DNA from: Eledone cirrhosa
Lineage: Eukaryota
Length of the DNA stretch: 64,000 bases
NCBI GenBank assembly: GCA_964016885.1
Contig: OZ024757.1
Coordinates: 23,746,001 to 23,810,000 of the forward strand
Direction of reading: 5' to 3'
Below the pieces are notes generated by a model. The model was not told where the DNA came from. It worked only from the letters and a program-made list of their open reading frames with translations, and made no database searches. Position 1 is the first letter of the stretch, and each line of letters starts with the position of its first letter. The position numbers and the translations under genes are program-made. This document shows, one piece after another, positions 16,411-62,634 of this stretch.

Positions 16411-37811
<21,401 letters not shown>

Positions 37812-38519: not shown

Positions 38520-41075
38520 TGAAATATACTGAGTAAAAACATTCTTGTGCTTTGTTTTATTTGTCATCCTTTGCCCTTTATATATTTCTACCACATTGTA
38601 CCAGCTTTCTGAAATACTTATCAGTCTTTTAAGGAAAGATATGTGTGGACAATGTAGTTCTAGAAATAGCAGCTAATAAGGAAGCCTTGACATGATAGAA
38701 ATAGTAGCCACCCAAAGGCATTATACTCATCATTCAACATCCTTGTCTAGTTTAACATCTTCTTTACTTGTTACAAGCATTGGAAGGTTTTGGTAGACCT
38801 TTTTCAAAGCATCTGTCCAGAGTGTTCATACCTGGGATAGGTTTTAGTCCTGGTTCCAGGCTTTCTGATCATCCCTGAATACTTTTTTTTTAGCTCTTAC
38901 ATGAGCCCCCTCACCTTTTCCTTGTCTACCAGGAGCTACAATCTTGGTACATTGATGTATCCACTCCCAACTACAGTTCACATGTCCAAACCAACACAGC
39001 CTGTGTGATCTTAAAACAGAGTTGAGTGCTGGTATCTTTAAGTTTGGGTAGAGAGATGCCATGTCCAGCAAACCATAGCATTTTCATTAATCAATAAACA
39101 TATTCAAGAGTTAGTGTGATTCTGTAGGAGGGCAATGCTGCTGTCAATAAAAACAACACACTGATGATAAGATAGAGAGATCATCTGACCAAATGGGCGA
39201 CTGTATGGGTACCTTGGTCCAGTATCAGGCATCATCAAAGAGTGTAGAGTCAGATTTGCAGGGCATTGCTGGGGAGCTAAAGATGAAATTGTTAGTGAAG
39301 TTATTTTGTGGGGGCCTACACAAGGCTAGAGTTATTAGAGGATGACAAGCCAAGACTTATATTAAGTAGATTTGAGATGACATAAACAACAATCTCTCTG
39401 ACCTGCTGAATATGATGAACAATAGAATTGGACGATGACAGAATCAAGGGAATCCATGTAAGCAGTACAATCTATTGATTGATTGAATTAAAACGAAATC
39501 AAAATGAAAAGGAGACTCAGAGAAACAAGAATATCTATTGAGGTCACAGAATGTGTGACAAAAGAGTTTTGATAACTAAATATGACAATTAAATAACAAT
39601 CTTGTTACTAAACGTAAATTCACCATGGAGGATGAAAAGAGATGACATGAAAGCAACAAGGGGAAAAGACCATTCTGGCAGTTGTGGATTAGACAGAGTG
39701 AAGAGGAAGCATATATGTGGGCGAGAGGCCAGAAAATGTCTGTAGTGGCTTTAGCCCTTTAGTTTCAGCTCGGCCTAAACCGGCTTTGGTTCTATGAAAT
39801 AAAACCACCCATTTTAACCCTTTAGCATTTACATTACTCTATATTTATTATTGTATTTTCGCAGTAAAGGCTTTATCTCCTATAATTATCACACATAATA
39901 TCTATGAGATTTTGATATTATTTATTTTGAGAACAATACCTTAACGTCAGTATGAGCAGCTGGGTACAGCCGGTTTGAACAAAAAGAGGTGAGAGAATTC
40001 TGGCCAGATATGGCCGGTTTAAATGTTGAAGGGTTAAAGGTTTCCAATTTAAATTAAAATTTTCCAACATAATTTCATATAAGAAGCTTGAATGACTGGT
40101 ACTTTATTTTATCGACCCCGTAAGGATGAAAGGCAAAGTTAACCTCGGCAGGATTTGAACTCAGACCGTAAAGGGACATAACTATGCTAGAAAGCATGGC
40201 GTCAGACCCTCTACCGATTCTGCCATCCACCGCCCCTAAGGCGGAGAATAATAATGGTTTCAAATTTAGACACAAGGCCAACAATTTTGCGAGAGGGGAA
40301 AGTCGATTAAATCAACCTCAGTACGTTACTGGTACTTTATTTTACCAACCCTGTAAGGATAAAAGGCAAAGCTAAGAAGTCTTCAACCATTGATTCTCAG
40401 AAAACTAAAGCCTTCTAGATGAAATTAGGTAAACAGAAACTGTGCTGATGCCTGTCATGTGTCTGTATATGAGTTTCTGTCAGTGTGAGAGAGAATGTGC
40501 TATTTATTCGACAAGGCCAGAACTTTTTGGGCGAGTGGGGGAGTGGTTAGTTGACTATATCGATATTTGTATTTAACTAGTACTTTATTTTATCGACCCC
40601 TCGCAAAAAAATGGAGGGCAGAATTGACATGGGATGAAATTAAAAAGTCTGTAACAGAAATACTGCACGAAATTTTGTCCGACGCTCTAACCATTTCACC
40701 AATTTATAACCGTTGACGTGACGAAAATAATGTTTTTTTTTTGTTGTTTTTGTTTTTCAATGCAAGGCATCTTATATTTGTGACAGTTCTAACGATTCTG
40801 AAGAACATTCACCGGAAGAAGACAGGAGAACACATACATATACTCACATATATGTATGTTCTAACGATTCTGAAGAACTGACACCGGAAATAGACACCCC
40901 CGCCCTTCACACACACACATATATATATATACATACACACTTTAAGCATAGATACATACACACACACACAAATAGACATACATACATACAAACATATTCC
41001 GGGTTGAATCGGAAGTAACCACAGTAAGTAAGGTACTCAATACATGGCAGAGTATAAAAGTTTTAATATAGAAGA

Positions 41076-41124
41076 GATTTTACAGGACTAGAACTGTTTC
41101 ATTCGTGAGAAATCATCAGGAATC
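41076..41124 (-). ncRNA. Hammerhead ribozyme-like motif (family A) in palindrome 41066-41180
   Basis: Minus strand GAUUC-CUGAUGA-uUUCucacGAAu-GAAACAG-uucuaguc-CUGUA/aAAUC; one stem I mismatch. Confidence 0.7.
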
Positions 41125-41171
41125 CCCGATGATTTCTCACGAATGAAACAGTTCTAGCCCTGTAGAATCTC

Positions 41172-41223
<52 letters not shown>

Positions 41224-41897
41224 CCCGGGTTCAATCGGGGGTAACCACAGTTAATAAGGTACTCAATACATAGAGTATATACAAGATTTAATATTAAAAA
41301 ATGGCTTCTACAGGACTAGAACTGTTTCATTCGAAGGAAATCATCCTTCACGATGATTTCCTTCGAATGCAACAGTTCTAACCTTGTAGAAGCCATTTCT
41401 ATATTAAATCTTATATATATATATATGTGTGTGTGTGTAAAACAAATAATAAAACAAAAGACAACAAAAGTAAATACATACACTCATAAATAAATACAAA
41501 CTTACCGAATTCTGGTCCCTTGCAATCTGAATACAGATGCGTATATATCTGTGTTTTTCTCCCTTTATATTGAATTATATATATTTTTGGGGGAGGGTCA
41601 TATTGTTATAATATTGCCAGAAATAATAATAAAACACATTCACTGTTTGGTATTGATTGGTTTTCGCTTCTGTATATTTTATATCCCTATAGTTAATTCA
41701 GTTGGCGATCAATGTTTATCATTGATTGACCAACAGTTGGTTAAGAATATAGATAAATATTTGGGATTATCAAATTTGCTAAGGTAAGATTCTTTTGTTA
41801 TCTTAGCAATCTTGATTTTTTTTCTAATGCATTGTACGGTTTTCAAAATTATTTAAATTTGTTACCTATTTGCTTCAAGCAAACTTCAACACTCTGT

Positions 41898-43206: not shown

Positions 43207-43288
43207 ATGCCTCGCAAGAAACCATTTAGCGTTAAACAGAAAAAGAAACAACTCCAAGAAAAGAGAGAACGACAGCGAAGCCAGGCAG
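43207..43288 (+). CDS. GNL1: Guanine nucleotide-binding protein-like 1, exon 1 (MPRKKPFSVKQKKKQLQEKRERQRSQA)
   Basis: Nearly identical to the GNL1 N-terminus MPRKKPFSVKQKKKQLQDKRER; donor G|gtaaat. Confidence 0.93.
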
Positions 43289-46871: not shown

Positions 46872-49800
46872 CACATAATAACCCTGATCATCAGTCCAAC
46901 ACCCTTACCACTAGGCCACATGTCTTCACATAACCCAGTCAAGGAAATGAACCCACAGCATTATGATCATCAGTCCAACACCCTTACCACTAGGCCACAT
47001 GTCTTCACATAACCCTGTCAAGGAATCAAACCCATAACATTATGACCATCAGTCCAACACCATTACCACTTGGCCACATGTCTTCACATAACCCAGTCAA
47101 GGAATCAAACCCACAGCATTATGATCATCAGTCCAACACCCTTACCACTAGGCCACATGTCTTCACATAACCCTGTCAAGGAATCAAACCCATAACATTA
47201 TGACCATCAGTCCAACACCCTTACCACTAGGCCACATGTCTTCACATAACCCAATCAAGGAATCAAACCCATAACATTATGACCATCAGTCCAACACCCT
47301 TACCACTAGGCCACATGTCTTCACATAACCCAGTCAAGGAATCAAACCCACAGCATTATGACCATCAGTCCTACACCCTTACCACTAGGCCACATGTCTT
47401 CACATAACCCAGTCAAGGAATCAAACCCACAGCATTATGATCATAAGTCCTACACCCTTACCACTAGGCCACATGTCTTCACATAACCCAATCGAGGAAT
47501 CAAACCCACAGCATTATGACCATCAGTCCAACACCCTTACCACTAGGCCACATGTCTTCACATAACCCAGTCAAGGAATCAAACCCACAGCATTATGATC
47601 ATAAGTCCTACACCCTTACCACTAGGCCACATGTCTTCACATAACCCAGTCAAGGAATCAAACCCACAGCATTATGACCATCAGTCCTACACCCTTACCA
47701 CTAGGCCACATGTCTTCACATAACCCAGTCAAGGAATCAAACACACAGCATTATGATCATAAGTCCTACACCCTTACCACTAGGCCACATGTCTTCACAT
47801 AACCCAGTCAAGGAATCAAACCCACAGCATTATGACCATCAGTCCAACACCCTTACCACTAGGCCACATGTCTTCACATAACCCAGTCAAGGAATCAAAC
47901 CCATAACATTATGACCATCAGTCCTACACCCTTACCACTAGGCCACATGTCTTCACATAACCCAGTCAAGGAATCAAACCCACAGCATTATGACCATCAG
48001 TCCAACACCCTTACCACTAGGCCACATGTCTTCACATAACCCAGTCAAGGAATCAAACCCATAACATTATGACCATCAGTCCTACACCCTTACCACTAGG
48101 CCACATGTCTTCACATAACCCAGTCAAGGAATCAAACCCACAGCATTATGACCATCAGTCCAACACCCTTACCACTAGGCCACATGTCTTCACATAACCC
48201 AGTCAAGGAATCAAACCCATAACATTATGACCATCAGTCCTACACCCTTACCACTAGGCCACATGTCTTCACATAACCCAGTCAAGGAATCAAACCCATA
48301 ACATTATGACCATCAGTCCTACACCCTTACCACTAGGCCACATGTCTTCACATAACCCAGTCAAGGAATCAAACCCACAGCATTATGAACATCAGTCCTA
48401 CACCCTTACCACTAGGCCACATGTCTTCACATAACCCAGTCAAGGAATCAAACCCATAACATTATGACCATCAGTCCAACACCCTTACCACTAGGCCACA
48501 TGTCTTCACATAACCCAGTCAAGGAATCAAACCCATAACATTATGACCATCAGTCCTACACCCTTACCACTAGGCCACATGTCTTCACATAACCCAGTCA
48601 AGGAATCAAACCCACAGCATTATGACCATCAGTCCAACACCCTTACCACTAGGCCACATGTCTTCACATAACCCAGTCAAGGAATCAAACCCATAACATT
48701 ATGACCATCAGTCCTACACCCTTACCATTAGGCCACATGTCTTCACATAACCCAGTCAAGGAATCAAACCCACAGCATTATGAACATCAGTCCTACACCC
48801 TTACCACTAGGCCACATGTCTTCACATAACCCAGTCAAGGAATCAAACCCATAACATTATGACCATCAGTCCAACACCCTTACCACTAGGCCACATGTCT
48901 TCACATAACCCAGTCAAGGAATCAAACCCATAACATTATGACCATCAGTCCTACACCCTTACCACTAGGCCACATGTCTTCACATAACCCAGTCAAGGAA
49001 TCAAACCCACAGCATTATGACCATCAGTCCAACACCCTTACCACTAGGCCACATGTCTTCACATAACCCAGTCAAGGAATCAAACCCATAACATTATGAC
49101 CATCAGTCCTACACCCTTACCACTAGGCCACATGTCTTCACATAACCCAGTCAAGGAATCAAACCCACAGCATTATGAACATCAGTCCTACACCCTTACC
49201 ACTAGGCCACATGTCTTCACATAACCCAGTCAAGGAATCAAACCCATAACATTATGACCATCAGTCCAACATCCTTACCACTAGGCCACATGTCTTCACA
49301 TAACCCAGTCAAGGAATCAAACCCACAACATTATGACCATCAGTCCTACACCCTTACCACTAGGCCACATGTCTTCACATAACCCAGTCAAGGAATCAAA
49401 CCCACAACATTATGACCATCAGTCCTACACCCTTACCACTAGGCCACATGTCTTCACATAACCCAGTCAAGGAATCAAACCCACAGCATTATGACCATCA
49501 GTCCAACACCCTTACCACTAGGCCACATGTCTTCACATAACCCAGTCAAAGAATCAAACCCACAGCATTATGACCATCAGTCCAACACCCTTACCACTAG
49601 GCCACATGTCTTCACATAACCCAGTCAAGGGATCAAACCCATAACATTATGACCATAAGTCCTACACCCTTACCACTAGGCCACATGTCTTCACATAACC
49701 CAGTCAAGGGATCAAACCCACAACATTATGACCATCAGTCCAACACCCTTACCACTAGGCCACATGTCTTCACATAACCCAGTCAAGGGATCAAACCCAT

Positions 49801-51288
49801 AACATTATGACCATCAGTCCAACACCCTTACCACTAGGCCACATGTCTTCACATAACCCAGTCAAGGAATCAAACCCATAACATTATGACCATCAGTCCA
49901 ACACCCTTACCACTAGGCCACATGTCTTCACATAACCCAGTCAAGGGATCAAACCCATAACATTATGACCATAAGTCCAACACCCTTACCACTAGGCCAC
50001 ATGTCTTCACATAACCCATAACATTATGACCATCAGTCCAACACCCTTACCACTAGGCCACATGTCCTCACATAACCCAGTCAAGGGATCAAACCCATAA
50101 CATTATGACCATAAGTCCTACACCCTAACCACTAGGCCACATGTCTTCACATAACCCAGTCAAGGGATCAAACCCATAACATTATGACCATCAGTCCAAC
50201 ACCCTTACCACTAGGCCACATGTCTTCACATAACCCATAACATTATGACCATCAGTCCTACACCCTTACCACTAGGCCACATGTCTTCACATAACCCAGT
50301 CAAGGAATCAAACCCACAACATTATGACCATCAGTCCAACACCCTTACCACTAGGCCACATGTCTTCACATAACCCAGTCAAGGGATCAAACCCACAGCA
50401 TTATGACCATCAGTCCTACACCCTTACCACTAGGCCACATGTCTTCACATAACCCAGTCAAGGAATCAAACCCACAACATTATGACCATCAGTCCAACAC
50501 CCTTACCACTAGGCCACATGTCTTCACATAACCCAGTCAAGGAATCAAACCCATAACATTATGACCATCAGTCCTACACCCTTACCACTAGGCCACATGT
50601 CTTCACATAACCCAGTCAAGGAATCAAACCAATAACATTATGACCATCAGTCCTACACCCTTACCACTAGGCCACATGTCTTCACATAACCCAGTCCAGG
50701 AATCAAACCCACAGCATTATGACCATCAGTCCAACACCCTTACCACTAGGCCACATGTCTTCACATAACCCAGTCAAGGAATCAAACCCATAACATTATG
50801 ACCATCAGTCCTACACCCTTACCACTAGGCCACATGTCTTCACATAACCCATAACATTATGACCATCAGTCCAACACCCTTACCACTAGGCCACATGTCT
50901 TCACATAACCCAGTCAAGGAATCAAACCCATAACATTATGACCATCAGTCCTACACCCTTACCACTAGGCCACATGTCTTCACATAACCCAGTCAAGGGA
51001 TCAAACCCATAACATTATGACCATCAGTCCTACACCCTTACCACTAGGCCACATGTCTTCACATAACCCAGTCAAGGGATCAAACCCATAACATTATGAC
51101 CATCAATCCTACACCCTTACCACTAGGCCACATGTCTTCACATAATCCAGTCAAGGAATCAAACCCATAACATTATGACCATCAGTCCTACACCCTTACC
51201 ACTAGGCCACATGTCTTCACATAACCCAGTCAAGGGATCAGACCCACAACATTATGACCATCAGTCCTACACCCTTACCACTAGGCCA
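46872..51288 (-). repeat. 79-bp satellite (about 56 units) made of tRNA-derived SINE heads, in GNL1 intron 1
   Basis: Period of 79 measured (46912 to 46991). The minus-strand unit carries an A box (TGGCCTAGTGG) and a B-box-like GGTTTGATTCC, and resembles the SINE heads at 29906, 54082 and 56703. Confidence 0.85.
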
Positions 51289-51324
51289 TCAAGACTAATA
51301 TTTATTACATTTTCTTGTTTACAG

Positions 51325-51445
51325 AGCGCAAGGGGAAATATGACAATTCTACATCATCGGACTCCGAGACACAGGCACCCCCCCGGGTGGCCAAACTGAA
51401 CGAACAACCTGTTAAATCATCTGATATGAAATCTAACCTGAACAG
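51325..51445 (+). CDS. GNL1: GNL1 exon 2 (ERKGKYDNSTSSDSETQAPPRVAKLNEQPVKSSDMKSNLNR)
   Basis: Acceptor ttttcttgtttacag, donor AG|gtaagt; phase 1 to 2; matches the SD...LNQQP...NR pattern preceding YRLHF in GNL1. I could not find exon 3 in the window. Confidence 0.85.
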
Positions 51446-60311: not shown

Positions 60312-61177
60312 GTGTCTGTCACTCTCTCTGTTTCTCTCTCTCTCTCTCACGCTCTCTCTCTCTCTGACTCCCTCTCCGACTCTGTGTCTGTCACTCTCTC
60401 TCTGTCTCACTCTTTCTCTTGTTTTGGTGATGGATGTCATGGCAGCATGCCTATAGCTCCTCCAGGAGTTGAATACTCAAGGAAGGAAAGGAAATTACGC
60501 GCACACATATATATATTCTTTTACATACACACACACACACAAACATATATATGCAAAAAGTAAACAGAAATAACAACGCAAATGACAAAACAATGAAGAA
60601 ATATATTAGTTTAACACTTGATATAGTAGGAAAAGAGTCTTGACATTTCAGACACTAGTCCTTCATAAAAAAAATAGAATGAGAAATTAAAGAAGAAATA
60701 GAAAGATAGAGGAGAGTTATCAAGGGCAAAAATGAAAGAGATTTTCTTGGAGAAAAAGGTCTGTTCATTGTGTTATCTCTTGGAAAACTGTTGATAGGAG
60801 CGTTTAGTTCAGTTGGCTGTCTTTTGAAAGGCTTTGACCATAAGGTGCTGAAAAGGAAAAAATACTTTTGTATAGAGTGTATATGTGTGTTGTTTTGTAT
60901 AAAGCTGTGCAAATATCTATATATGTATATGTGGTTGGTATTAGGAAGGGCACCCTACTATAGAAACCAAGCCAGTTCTGTATGAGCAAGACATGGTCAC
61001 CTGATATGACTTGTCTTACAATGGGACAGCTTGTCTAACTCATGCTAGTGTGAAAAATATACATTAAACAATGATGATGGAGTATATATATGTGTATACA
61101 CAAATACACACATATACATACATTCATTCATACATGTGTGTATATATACACACATATATCATCATCATCATCATCAT

Positions 61178-61390
61178 CGAAGGAATTGTGGTAAGGAACC
61201 AGATGGACCATAACGCACCAAAGTACTCAATACTTAGGGTAAGAGTGGGTAATAGGAACGAGTAGGACCCCGACGGCTGAGCTCAAGCCGTTTCGACGGC
61301 TAATTCTGGACTAAAATGGACTAACAATTTAGTCCAGAATTAGCCGTCGAAACGGCTTGAGCTCAGCCGTCGGGGTCCTACTCGTTCCTA
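61178..61390 (-). mobile_element. Foldback element family G (3' half of a hammerhead plus about 75-bp tail); other copies at 2343-2490 and 3285-3420 (+)
   Basis: Palindrome 61253-61390 contains GAAACGGCU-ugagcuc-AGCCGUC/GGGG; same body and tail (taagtattgagtac...ccttcg) in three copies flanked by simple repeats. Confidence 0.7.
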
Positions 61391-61454
61391 CATATATATA
61401 TGTATATATTGGTAAAAGGAAAAGAAAATGCTGACAAATTGTTCCCAGTGAAAA

Positions 61455-61570
61455 ATAGTTTAATTAGGAATAAGTAAAAATTAGTAATAAGTATTGGTTA
61501 GTATTCAGTTTTAGTTTAAAACTAAAACTGAATACTTATTACTAATTTTTACTTATTCCTAATTAAACTC
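61455..61570. repeat. AT-rich palindrome
   Basis: agtttaattaggaataagtaaaaattagtaataagtatt ... aatacttattactaatttttacttattcctaattaaact. Confidence 0.75.
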
Positions 61571-61924
61571 GTGTTTTACACCTCTATTCTTTTAAATATA
61601 TATATATATATATATATATGTGTGAGTTTTATTGTAGTACAATAAAGCAATGCAGATATCGGATAAGAAGCACTCTACAGTTTGTAGGACTGGAGTATAC
61701 ATAATATATAAGAACAAAAGATGGTTAAAAGAGTTCCATGTATTTTATTATGCGCATTTCAAAAACAAATATCATCATATAATAATATTTGTGTTTTCAT
61801 CAGATAAAACAGGAAGACATGATATGAAGGTTAAAAAACACTTGTGGATAGTGCAGTTTTCATATGTTGATTTAAAACTGCACTATCCACAAGTGTTTTT
61901 TAACCTTCATATCATGTCTTCCTG

Positions 61925-61991
61925 TTTTATCTGATGAAAACACAAATATTATTGCATGATGATATTTGTTTTTGAAATGCGCATAATAAAA
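61925..61991 (+). ncRNA. Type I hammerhead ribozyme (family D); mirror copy on minus strand at 61743-61809
   Basis: UUUUAU-CUGAUGA-long AU-rich stem II-GAAAUGCGCAUA/AUAAAA; 6-bp stem I, self-complementary AUGCGCAU stem III, AUA site. Confidence 0.8.
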
Positions 61992-62272
61992 TACATGGAA
62001 CTCTTTTAACCATCTTTTGTTCTTATATATTATATATATATATATATATAATTAGAAAGTGAACAACACAAAATATAACTACTCCATTACCAAAGGTTTC
62101 TGGATCCCAGACAATAATAATATACATCTGGATCGGTCGTCAGACAGAGATGTGTTGTTTACTTTCTAATTAAATAGCTCTGTTCTATACATAGAGCACT
62201 CTTTTTTCCTTTGCTTTTCCTTCGGAATTACCTAACATATATATATTCATTTTATTAAGGCTAAATAGTGAG

Positions 62273-62374
62273 TCTTGTTACTCTGGAGTTTCACCTGCTA
62301 CTCACAGGATCATCAGAGAAAACATCTTGTCTGGTGACTCTATGAGAAGCAGGTGAAACCTCAGAGTTACAAGA
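62273..62374. ncRNA. Pair of mirrored degenerate hammerheads (family E)
   Basis: Minus arm: CUGAUGA-uCCUG..CAGGu-GAAACUCcaGAGUA/ACAAGA. Plus arm: UCUUGU-CUGGUGA...GAAAC..GUU/ACAAGA. The consensus of the two arms is a full hammerhead. Confidence 0.6.
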
Positions 62375-62634
62375 CTAGATTGGCAGTATAGGTAGAGGGT
62401 CGGACGCCACGCTTTCCAGCATAGTTACGTCCCTTTACGGTCTGAGTTCAAATCCCGTCGAAGTTAACTTTGCCTTTCATCCTTACGGGTTCATAAAATA
62501 AAGTACCAGTAATGTACTGGGTAATTGTTGGCCTTGTGCCAAAAGTAGAAACAATTATTTAGCCTTAATAAAATGAATATTTAAATTCTACTTCAGTGTT
62601 GAGTACTCTTATCTCACAGCTGTCAATGACATAT

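Follow-up and report, generated by a model that had tools for sequence, protein, structure and literature searches.

The Hydra clade consists of Penelope-like elements that encode a C-terminal endonuclease, insert into (TA)n tracts, and carry hammerhead ribozyme motifs, and its members are generally shorter than 3 kb, which is a tendency and not a strict criterion (Craig et al. 2021, PMC8557442). The hammerheads of Penelope-like elements are motifs of type I that have a long stem II and a short palindromic stem III that is expected to need a dimer, and dual motifs located 100-700 bp apart on opposite strands were reported in 2014 (Cervera and de la Pena 2014, PMC4209133). Penelope-type motifs are able to cut as dimers or with the help of protein (PMC4209133, PMC11167929). 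Insertions with an inverted pseudo-LTR and a one-sided tail have also been published (Arkhipova et al. 2013, PMC3846280; Craig 2021, PMC8557442), and the same inverted layout occurs in Naiad elements, which have no canonical hammerheads (PMC8557442). In vitro, both strands of an AT-rich target are cut and extended by PAc Poseidon, and reverse transcription begins at two internal start sites that bound the tail, uses uncut RNA, and can dispense with hammerhead cutting (Frangieh et al. 2024, PMC11167929). This work accounts for the tail and not for the inversion (PMC11167929), and mechanistic work on Penelope elements has been called for (Craig 2021, PMC8557442).

The hairpin described here lies in a window, the whole 64-kb stretch of DNA that was analysed. 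Thousands of stubby insertions with mirror-image arms derive from the tail end of one element, and the hairpin is among them. It almost certainly represents the hammerhead-bearing end of a Hydra-clade Penelope-like retrotransposon that was inserted head-to-head in truncated form. The near-perfect structure of about 330 bp with few mismatches that an earlier note had reported is confirmed. Inverted-repeat arms of 165 nt each (61696-61860 and 61874-62038) are 98% complementary across a spacing of 13 nt, and within 61701-62033 the only mismatches are two bases in the stem II loop (61779-61780 against 61954-61955). The whole insert is larger than first reported, spanning 412 bp (61622-62033), and its sequence abuts (TA)n at both ends (61594-61619 on the left and 62034-62050 on the right).

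The two arms end differently. The left arm is the element's 3' end on the minus strand (61701-61860), reaches 100 nt upstream of the GAAA anchor, and is extended down to 61622 by an extra tail of about 80 bp. This tail (61622-61700, minus strand) occurs only on this long-end arm, matches a natural tandem copy at 100% over 79 nt, and stops 9 nt before the usual long end of the family. The right arm (61874-62033, plus strand) is a short 3' end without the tail; it reaches 117 nt upstream of the anchor and exceeds the usual family stop by 1-5 nt. Between the arms, the junction and loop (61857-61873, plus strand) consist of a 4-nt TTTT/AAAA overlap followed by natural element sequence. The loop includes the ATATGTTG point (A at 61862) that is the most common stopping place of family arms, and this exact junction has four occurrences in the genome.

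At least seven more inserts of this design, from other families, are present in the same window. Head-to-head palindromes of other families with hammerhead-like cores occur at 2503-2615, 28354-28518, 28597-28756, 41066-41179, 41299-41398, and 62271-62376. Most of these have a tail at one end and (TA)n at the opposite end, and the family at 28354-28518 has the same stem II design as the hairpin (3 bp, a mismatch, and a long helix). Immediately to the left of the hairpin, with only (TA)n between, are palindromic inserts at 61169-61390, whose tail is one-sided and of which a relative lies at about 2350-2490, and at 61410-61593, a nested palindrome in which no hammerhead core was seen. Elsewhere in the window, about 2 kb (roughly 26000-28200) is nearly pure (TA)n with a GC content of 2%.

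The placement of the hairpin downstream of exon 2, in intron 2 of a GNL1-like GTPase gene, is supported by the exon map. Exon 1 (43207-43288) and exon 2 (51325-51445) are on the plus strand, the latter being the sole open AG..GT candidate with fitting phases that lies between exon 1 and exon 3, and exon 3 lies on the same strand about 10.9 kb beyond the end of the window. Later exons with GTPase motifs match Lsg1-type GTPases (E = 2.7e-7 and 7e-12), and an atlas look-up of one exon returned nothing usable. The name GNL1 in preference to LSG1 follows the human sequences and is provisional. Intron 1 contains a long tandem array with a 79-bp unit (about 46900-51300) that ends just 5' of exon 2, and a 57-bp array upstream of it.

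Both strands of the hairpin carry a type I hammerhead motif. The plus-strand motif (61923-61993) is in the sense orientation of the host gene, with a predicted cut at 61985/61986, and the minus-strand motif (61741-61811) has a core that starts at 61803 and a predicted cut at 61749/61748. In the former, stem I pairs 61923-61930 with 61986-61993 (8 bp), the core comprises CUGAUGA (61931-61937) and GAAA (61974-61977), the long stem II has 36 nt and a C-U mismatch, and stem III is the palindromic AUGCGCAU (61977-61984). The elements by which hammerheads are recognized (CUGANGA, GAAA, NUH, and three stems) are all present. The proposal of an intact hammerhead on each strand stands for the motif itself, but the 10.1-11.1 pair is A-U in place of the usual G-C, and stem I has 8 bp and not the 6 bp first given. 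Among 93 family rows this pair is A-U in 76, G-U in 15, and G-C in one. A solo hammerhead-like motif (62088-62143, minus strand), whose stem II has 36 nt, lies 55 bp to the right of the hairpin in antisense orientation to the host gene.

A descriptor search finds seven hammerhead motifs in the window, compared with none or one in each of 30 block-wise dinucleotide resamplings, and no resampled motif had a palindromic stem III. Rfam returns no match at gathering scores. Over 49 distinct family rows the stems are paired in 97.1% of cells, compared with 34-66% when they are slid, and stem changes across these rows are mostly one-sided and keep the pair. The covariation score is equalled in 108 of 500 shuffles, for rows that were selected on stem III and include one that is not a hammerhead.

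In the 3.0-Gb genome, 25,186 sites match an 18-mer from the hammerhead exactly, and the reversed control matches none. To describe the family we used 100 listed places of this 18-mer, all from one 24-Mb stretch of contig C1 and selected by exact match. At several of these places, intact open reading frames of about 800 codons adjoin the arm matches. Folded together with 72 homologues, the ORF gives a model with a pLDDT of 88 (33 from the single sequence), whose best Foldseek match is the telomerase reverse transcriptase TERT 3du5 (E = 2.4e-7), with other reverse transcriptases close behind. Pfam recognizes RVT_1 in 4 of 73 homologues and GIY-YIG in 4 of 73. The ORF alone has no RVT_1 match in Pfam, no GIY-YIG chain is among the fold matches listed for its model, and a PDB sequence search with its alignment gave nothing usable. 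By inspection, the C-terminal part contains LIY...YFG and conserved R, E, and N residues. Marks of the Hydra clade include HSDKT, CNCRIKNKC (CxCx5C), CNLC before the E, and CLH after the N; CCHH is absent, a single Cys lies between IY and YFG, and at the RWK position the ORF has RLRW followed by I or T. An Asn/Pro/Thr-rich segment that is predicted to be disordered separates the reverse transcriptase from the nuclease (ORF residues 588-655; L031:3950-4160), and it recalls the Asn-rich inserts carried by rotifer Penelope ORFs (PMC3846280).

Tandem copies are spaced 3.7 kb apart at locus L043, and pseudo-LTR partial tandems, an inverted 5' copy, and a one-sided tail are seen at loci L043, L045, and L031. 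At another locus (L044, G000:C1:18485000-18494999), two head-to-head pairs 6.5 kb apart in inverted arrangement flank a different GIY-YIG-bearing ORF fragment, and their arms are more diverged than usual. Two RNA runs (X1 and X2) yield one ORF contig each, which is uninformative on expression, start, or cleavage. The kind of element and its head-to-head anatomy are already known. The copy in intron 2 is incapable of transposing by itself.

The population of copies has a regular end structure. Among the 100 listed places, 32 of 39 neighbors less than 5.2 kb apart are head-to-head, 13 of them at 190-250 bp, and outer ends fall into two classes, at about 55-65 nt and about 148 nt past the anchor. 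One long and one short end are combined in 38 of 41 head-to-head pairs, or in 34 of 37 if four loci picked by their junctions are left out. Of the other three pairs, one has a truncated end, another has an end that runs on into the ORF, and the third has two long ends. Arms of the same pair differ at a median of 1 of 136 nt, compared with 10 between loci (33 pairs, one row of which was mis-measured). In the sole long-long pair, which probably represents two insertions, the difference is 7. When the reach of the arms is compared in 34 pairs (one row moved and one set aside by hand), the short arm extends further in 20, the long arm in 6, seven are equal, and one is unresolved; the excess of the short arm is often 1-2 kb. 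In addition, 32 anchors are unpaired, and facing 6 of these is an antisense long end that lacks the short-end region, which is to say a partner that is only or nearly only tail.

The inner ends of the arms are also patterned. Among 106 arms, the stop lies no more than 3 nt from the A of ATATGTTG in 25 and no more than 8 nt away in 33; the stops of a further 41 are scattered across about 550 nt, and the remaining 32 arms extend beyond the 560 nt measured. Genome-wide, 4,402 matches begin at this stop after a base other than the template C, and 2,329 begin there after G, a pattern that is not strictly nested in the first set. In the 100 matches listed, the preceding base is G in 47, T in 37, and A in 16. 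Inspection by eye gives about 22 of the 47 G cases in which neither the partner arm nor a local duplication can supply the base, and 25 in which one of them may. A G precedes 18-33% of AT, ATA, and ATAT sites in the partner arm, so part of the G excess may be microhomology. Perfect junctions centered on CATATG account for 7 of the 25 arms at the stop and number 795 in the genome. Junction centers differ between copies, many have short fillers, and some read CATAT-C-AT-G-ATATG with the extra base on both arms. Palindromes form a size gradient between about 100 bp and 5 kb, including the ORF, and the abundance of short palindromes rests on the 100-place sample together with the exact-junction counts. 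Run X3 has joints at the same stop, with C next in 7 of the 10 rows shown, and is not counted as independent because it may be a source of the assembly itself.

Arms rarely begin at the predicted hammerhead cut. There are 210 matches that start at the cut site and 143 that start two bases upstream, of which about 38 and 17, respectively, per 100 listed are true junctions by eye and the rest point changes or small deletions. This gives an estimated 80 or so arms beginning at the cut site compared with about 25 at the control position, a slight excess that is confounded by AT microhomology. With so few arms at the cut site relative to the 4,402 matches at the inferred RNA start, templates would almost always be uncut.

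These copy counts, together with the in vitro behavior of PAc Poseidon, suggest that each insertion consists of two target-primed cDNAs, one from each start site, that are joined at their 3' ends (probability about 0.7). The element nuclease would nick both strands within (TA)n. Of the two nicks, one would prime at the short start site, whereas priming from the other would occur at the long site, some 85 nt closer to the RNA's 3' end, and for this reason only one arm receives the tail. Both copies would read through the uncut hammerhead, with the long-site copy probably behind on the same RNA and displacing the short-site strand as it proceeds. If priming takes place on the first repeat of the transcript, both copies may stop at the RNA start (the A of ATATGTTG), probably a capped 5' end, where a base would often be added that reads as G in the sense orientation. 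The free ends could then anneal through 2-6 nt or a short filler and be filled in. First-repeat priming is predicted to give a hairpin of about 400 bp, and priming on a downstream repeat an insertion of several kilobases.

The combination of long and short ends, the near identity of the arms, and the bias toward a longer short arm fit two primers on one RNA, and the tail-only partners may represent classic twin priming. A cap can be copied as G, as is known from L1 and retroviral reverse transcriptases. That the stop is fixed and carries an extra G is consistent with run-off where a capped RNA begins. Points against are that no TATA box lies where one would normally be expected upstream of the inferred start and that the right arm of the present copy passes the usual stop by 1-5 nt. 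We give slightly less than an even chance to the more specific proposal that one RNA templates both arms and that its cap is copied as G. The same end pattern is also expected if an asymmetric dimer used two RNAs that come from one source locus.

In self-priming, one cDNA, or an antisense template as proposed earlier (Arkhipova et al. 2013, PMC3846280 Discussion), turns back, copies an inverted arm, and is resolved at the TA-like short end. Self-priming would also produce near-identical arms and small central palindromes, perfect CATATG centers such as the 795 junctions are also expected from it, and the 13-nt loop of the hairpin closed by TTTT/AAAA resembles a snap-back. A copy made by fold-back must, however, be a subset of the first strand, yet in 20 of the 26 pairs with unequal arms it is the short arm that extends further. 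Self-priming fails for these pairs because the short arm lacks the tail, so that neither arm is a subset of the other; later deletions at palindrome centers could, in turn, have shortened either arm. Tail-only partners and the CATAT-C-AT-G-ATATG junctions with an extra base on both arms are further difficulties. The data favor two primed cDNAs over the published self-priming (PMC3846280), and we regard fold-back as unlikely.

The many similar-sized copies and the 795 with one common center might instead suggest a MITE- or retrozyme-like element, palindromic and non-autonomous, that is propagated as one fixed unit. This is extremely improbable given that centers vary from copy to copy, the hairpin's own junction is found only four times in the genome, copies of every size between about 100 bp and 5 kb occur with the ORF included in some, and the ends are asymmetric without any tandem array. 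Non-LTR retrozymes are head-to-tail tandem arrays of hammerhead units (bioRxiv 10.64898/2026.07.22.740005), and the hairpin is a single inverted pair. The variable centers and asymmetric ends also differ from the fixed internal sequence and symmetric terminal repeats of a MITE.

The earlier note had proposed a functional reason for the layout, namely that the antisense arm silences the ribozyme and that such silencing may explain how introns tolerate inserts of this kind. Several of its premises agree with predicted folding. The monomer adopts the hammerhead fold with a probability of only about 4e-8 and the stem III palindrome self-pairs at -10.5 kcal/mol, as expected if a dimer is required. 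An antisense arm does lie upstream of the motif whichever strand is transcribed, and when the full insert is folded every core base is paired with this arm (p at least 0.997), which is the predicted lock. In host pre-mRNA the insert would form a duplex of about 160 bp that buries the hammerhead completely. An intronic ribozyme can reduce host mRNA, as in mouse Cpeb3 (PMC10919898), so unlocked copies may to some extent be selected against, and the known cutting of Penelope-type motifs as dimers or with protein assistance also speaks for the idea.

The step from lock to tolerance is not supported. The two motifs are on opposite strands, so a single transcript holds only a monomer, and the lock is redundant because there is one motif per transcript and no dimer partner. 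The monomer fold is negligible even without the lock. Moreover, intron 4 of the same gene carries an unlocked sense-strand hammerhead motif of a related family (L048:8463-8528; G000:C18, about 23,828,471) with no antisense copy within 6 kb. In the family sample, counted without regard to gene context, 32 of 114 anchors face no hammerhead anchor. Naiads share the layout without canonical hammerheads (PMC8557442), and truncations at the predicted cut site are scarce (about 80 compared with 4,402 at the RNA-start site). The lock is not needed to explain tolerance of the insert, and its retention to silence an otherwise harmful ribozyme is very unlikely. Because the buried hammerhead is already unable to fold as a monomer, any silencing is incidental, and the hairpin is likely a by-product of cDNA synthesis and not a switch kept to silence a ribozyme motif.

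The locus itself is an ordinary dead insertion, and its family bears on the unsettled mechanism behind the inverted ends and tails of Penelope elements. The family is young and has more than 25,000 ends, so its footprints can be counted (a long end paired with a short end in each insertion, and a fixed stop with an extra G), which makes competing models directly testable. We tentatively put forward, at odds a little below even, a general model in which Penelope-like elements integrate by obligate twin priming, with a dimeric enzyme that primes both target strands at two fixed sites of one RNA, displacement of the leading cDNA by the trailing polymerase, and a cap-copied run-off of both. If this is true, obligate twin priming alone would explain the inverted arm, the one-sided tail, and the mini-hairpins; hairpins by the thousands would map the transcription start of the element to the base; and host introns would be seeded with long double-stranded RNA. 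Thousands of near-perfect 160-bp hairpins, some of them intronic, may also be substrates for RNA editing or small-RNA pathways. In a search that covered few subscription papers or bioRxiv supplements, we found no paper that proposes twin priming, cap run-off, or cap copying for Penelope elements.

The element most closely resembles the Hydra clade, with which it shares a single ORF with a reverse transcriptase followed by a putative GIY-YIG-type domain, the DKT motif, a CxCx5C linker, CxxC and CxH around the conserved E and N, and the absence of CCHH (PMC8557442). It also shares the 3' hammerhead and the (TA)n target, with nearly all intact ends running into TA repeats. By eye, its ORF matches the Hydra-1_Obim protein motif by motif (PMC8557442 supplement), and the differing hammerhead sequence places the hairpin in a separate family. 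The unit is about 3.7 kb here and usually under 3 kb in the clade, RW-I/T replaces RWK, the linker is Asn-rich and disordered, and the tail is about 85 nt long compared with the 30-40 bp usually quoted, with more than 25,000 ends here (PMC8557442). Like the Penelope hammerheads described in 2014, the hairpin has type I motifs with a long stem II and a palindromic stem III, paired on opposite strands; unlike them, its family has A-U or G-U and rarely G-C at 10.1-11.1 and a stem I of 8 bp (PMC4209133).

In its insertions the family resembles the Penelope copies of Arkhipova et al. 2013, which have an inverted, head-to-head, 5'-truncated copy, a tail at one end, junction microhomology, and partial tandems (PMC3846280). 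Unlike those, both arms here often end at the same base to give a pure hairpin without an ORF (PMC3846280). Two start sites that bound the tail, extension of both strands, and dispensable hammerhead cutting are features in common with PAc Poseidon, although the start sites precede the ORF here, unlike in that element (PMC11167929). The available text on PAc Poseidon does not treat inverted insertions (the word 'inverted' appears once, for a blocking base) or capped run-off (PMC11167929).

The proposed joining of two cDNAs also has a likeness to L1 twin priming, in which two target strands prime on the element RNA and yield an inverted joint. Twin priming of L1 is reportedly the work of Ostertag and Kazazian in 2001. 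It is mentioned as well in a recent preprint (bioRxiv 10.1101/2024.12.14.628481). In L1 there is no overlap between the arms, and the position of the second site varies, whereas in the hairpin family both sites are fixed and the arms overlap, so that either strand displacement or a second RNA would be needed.
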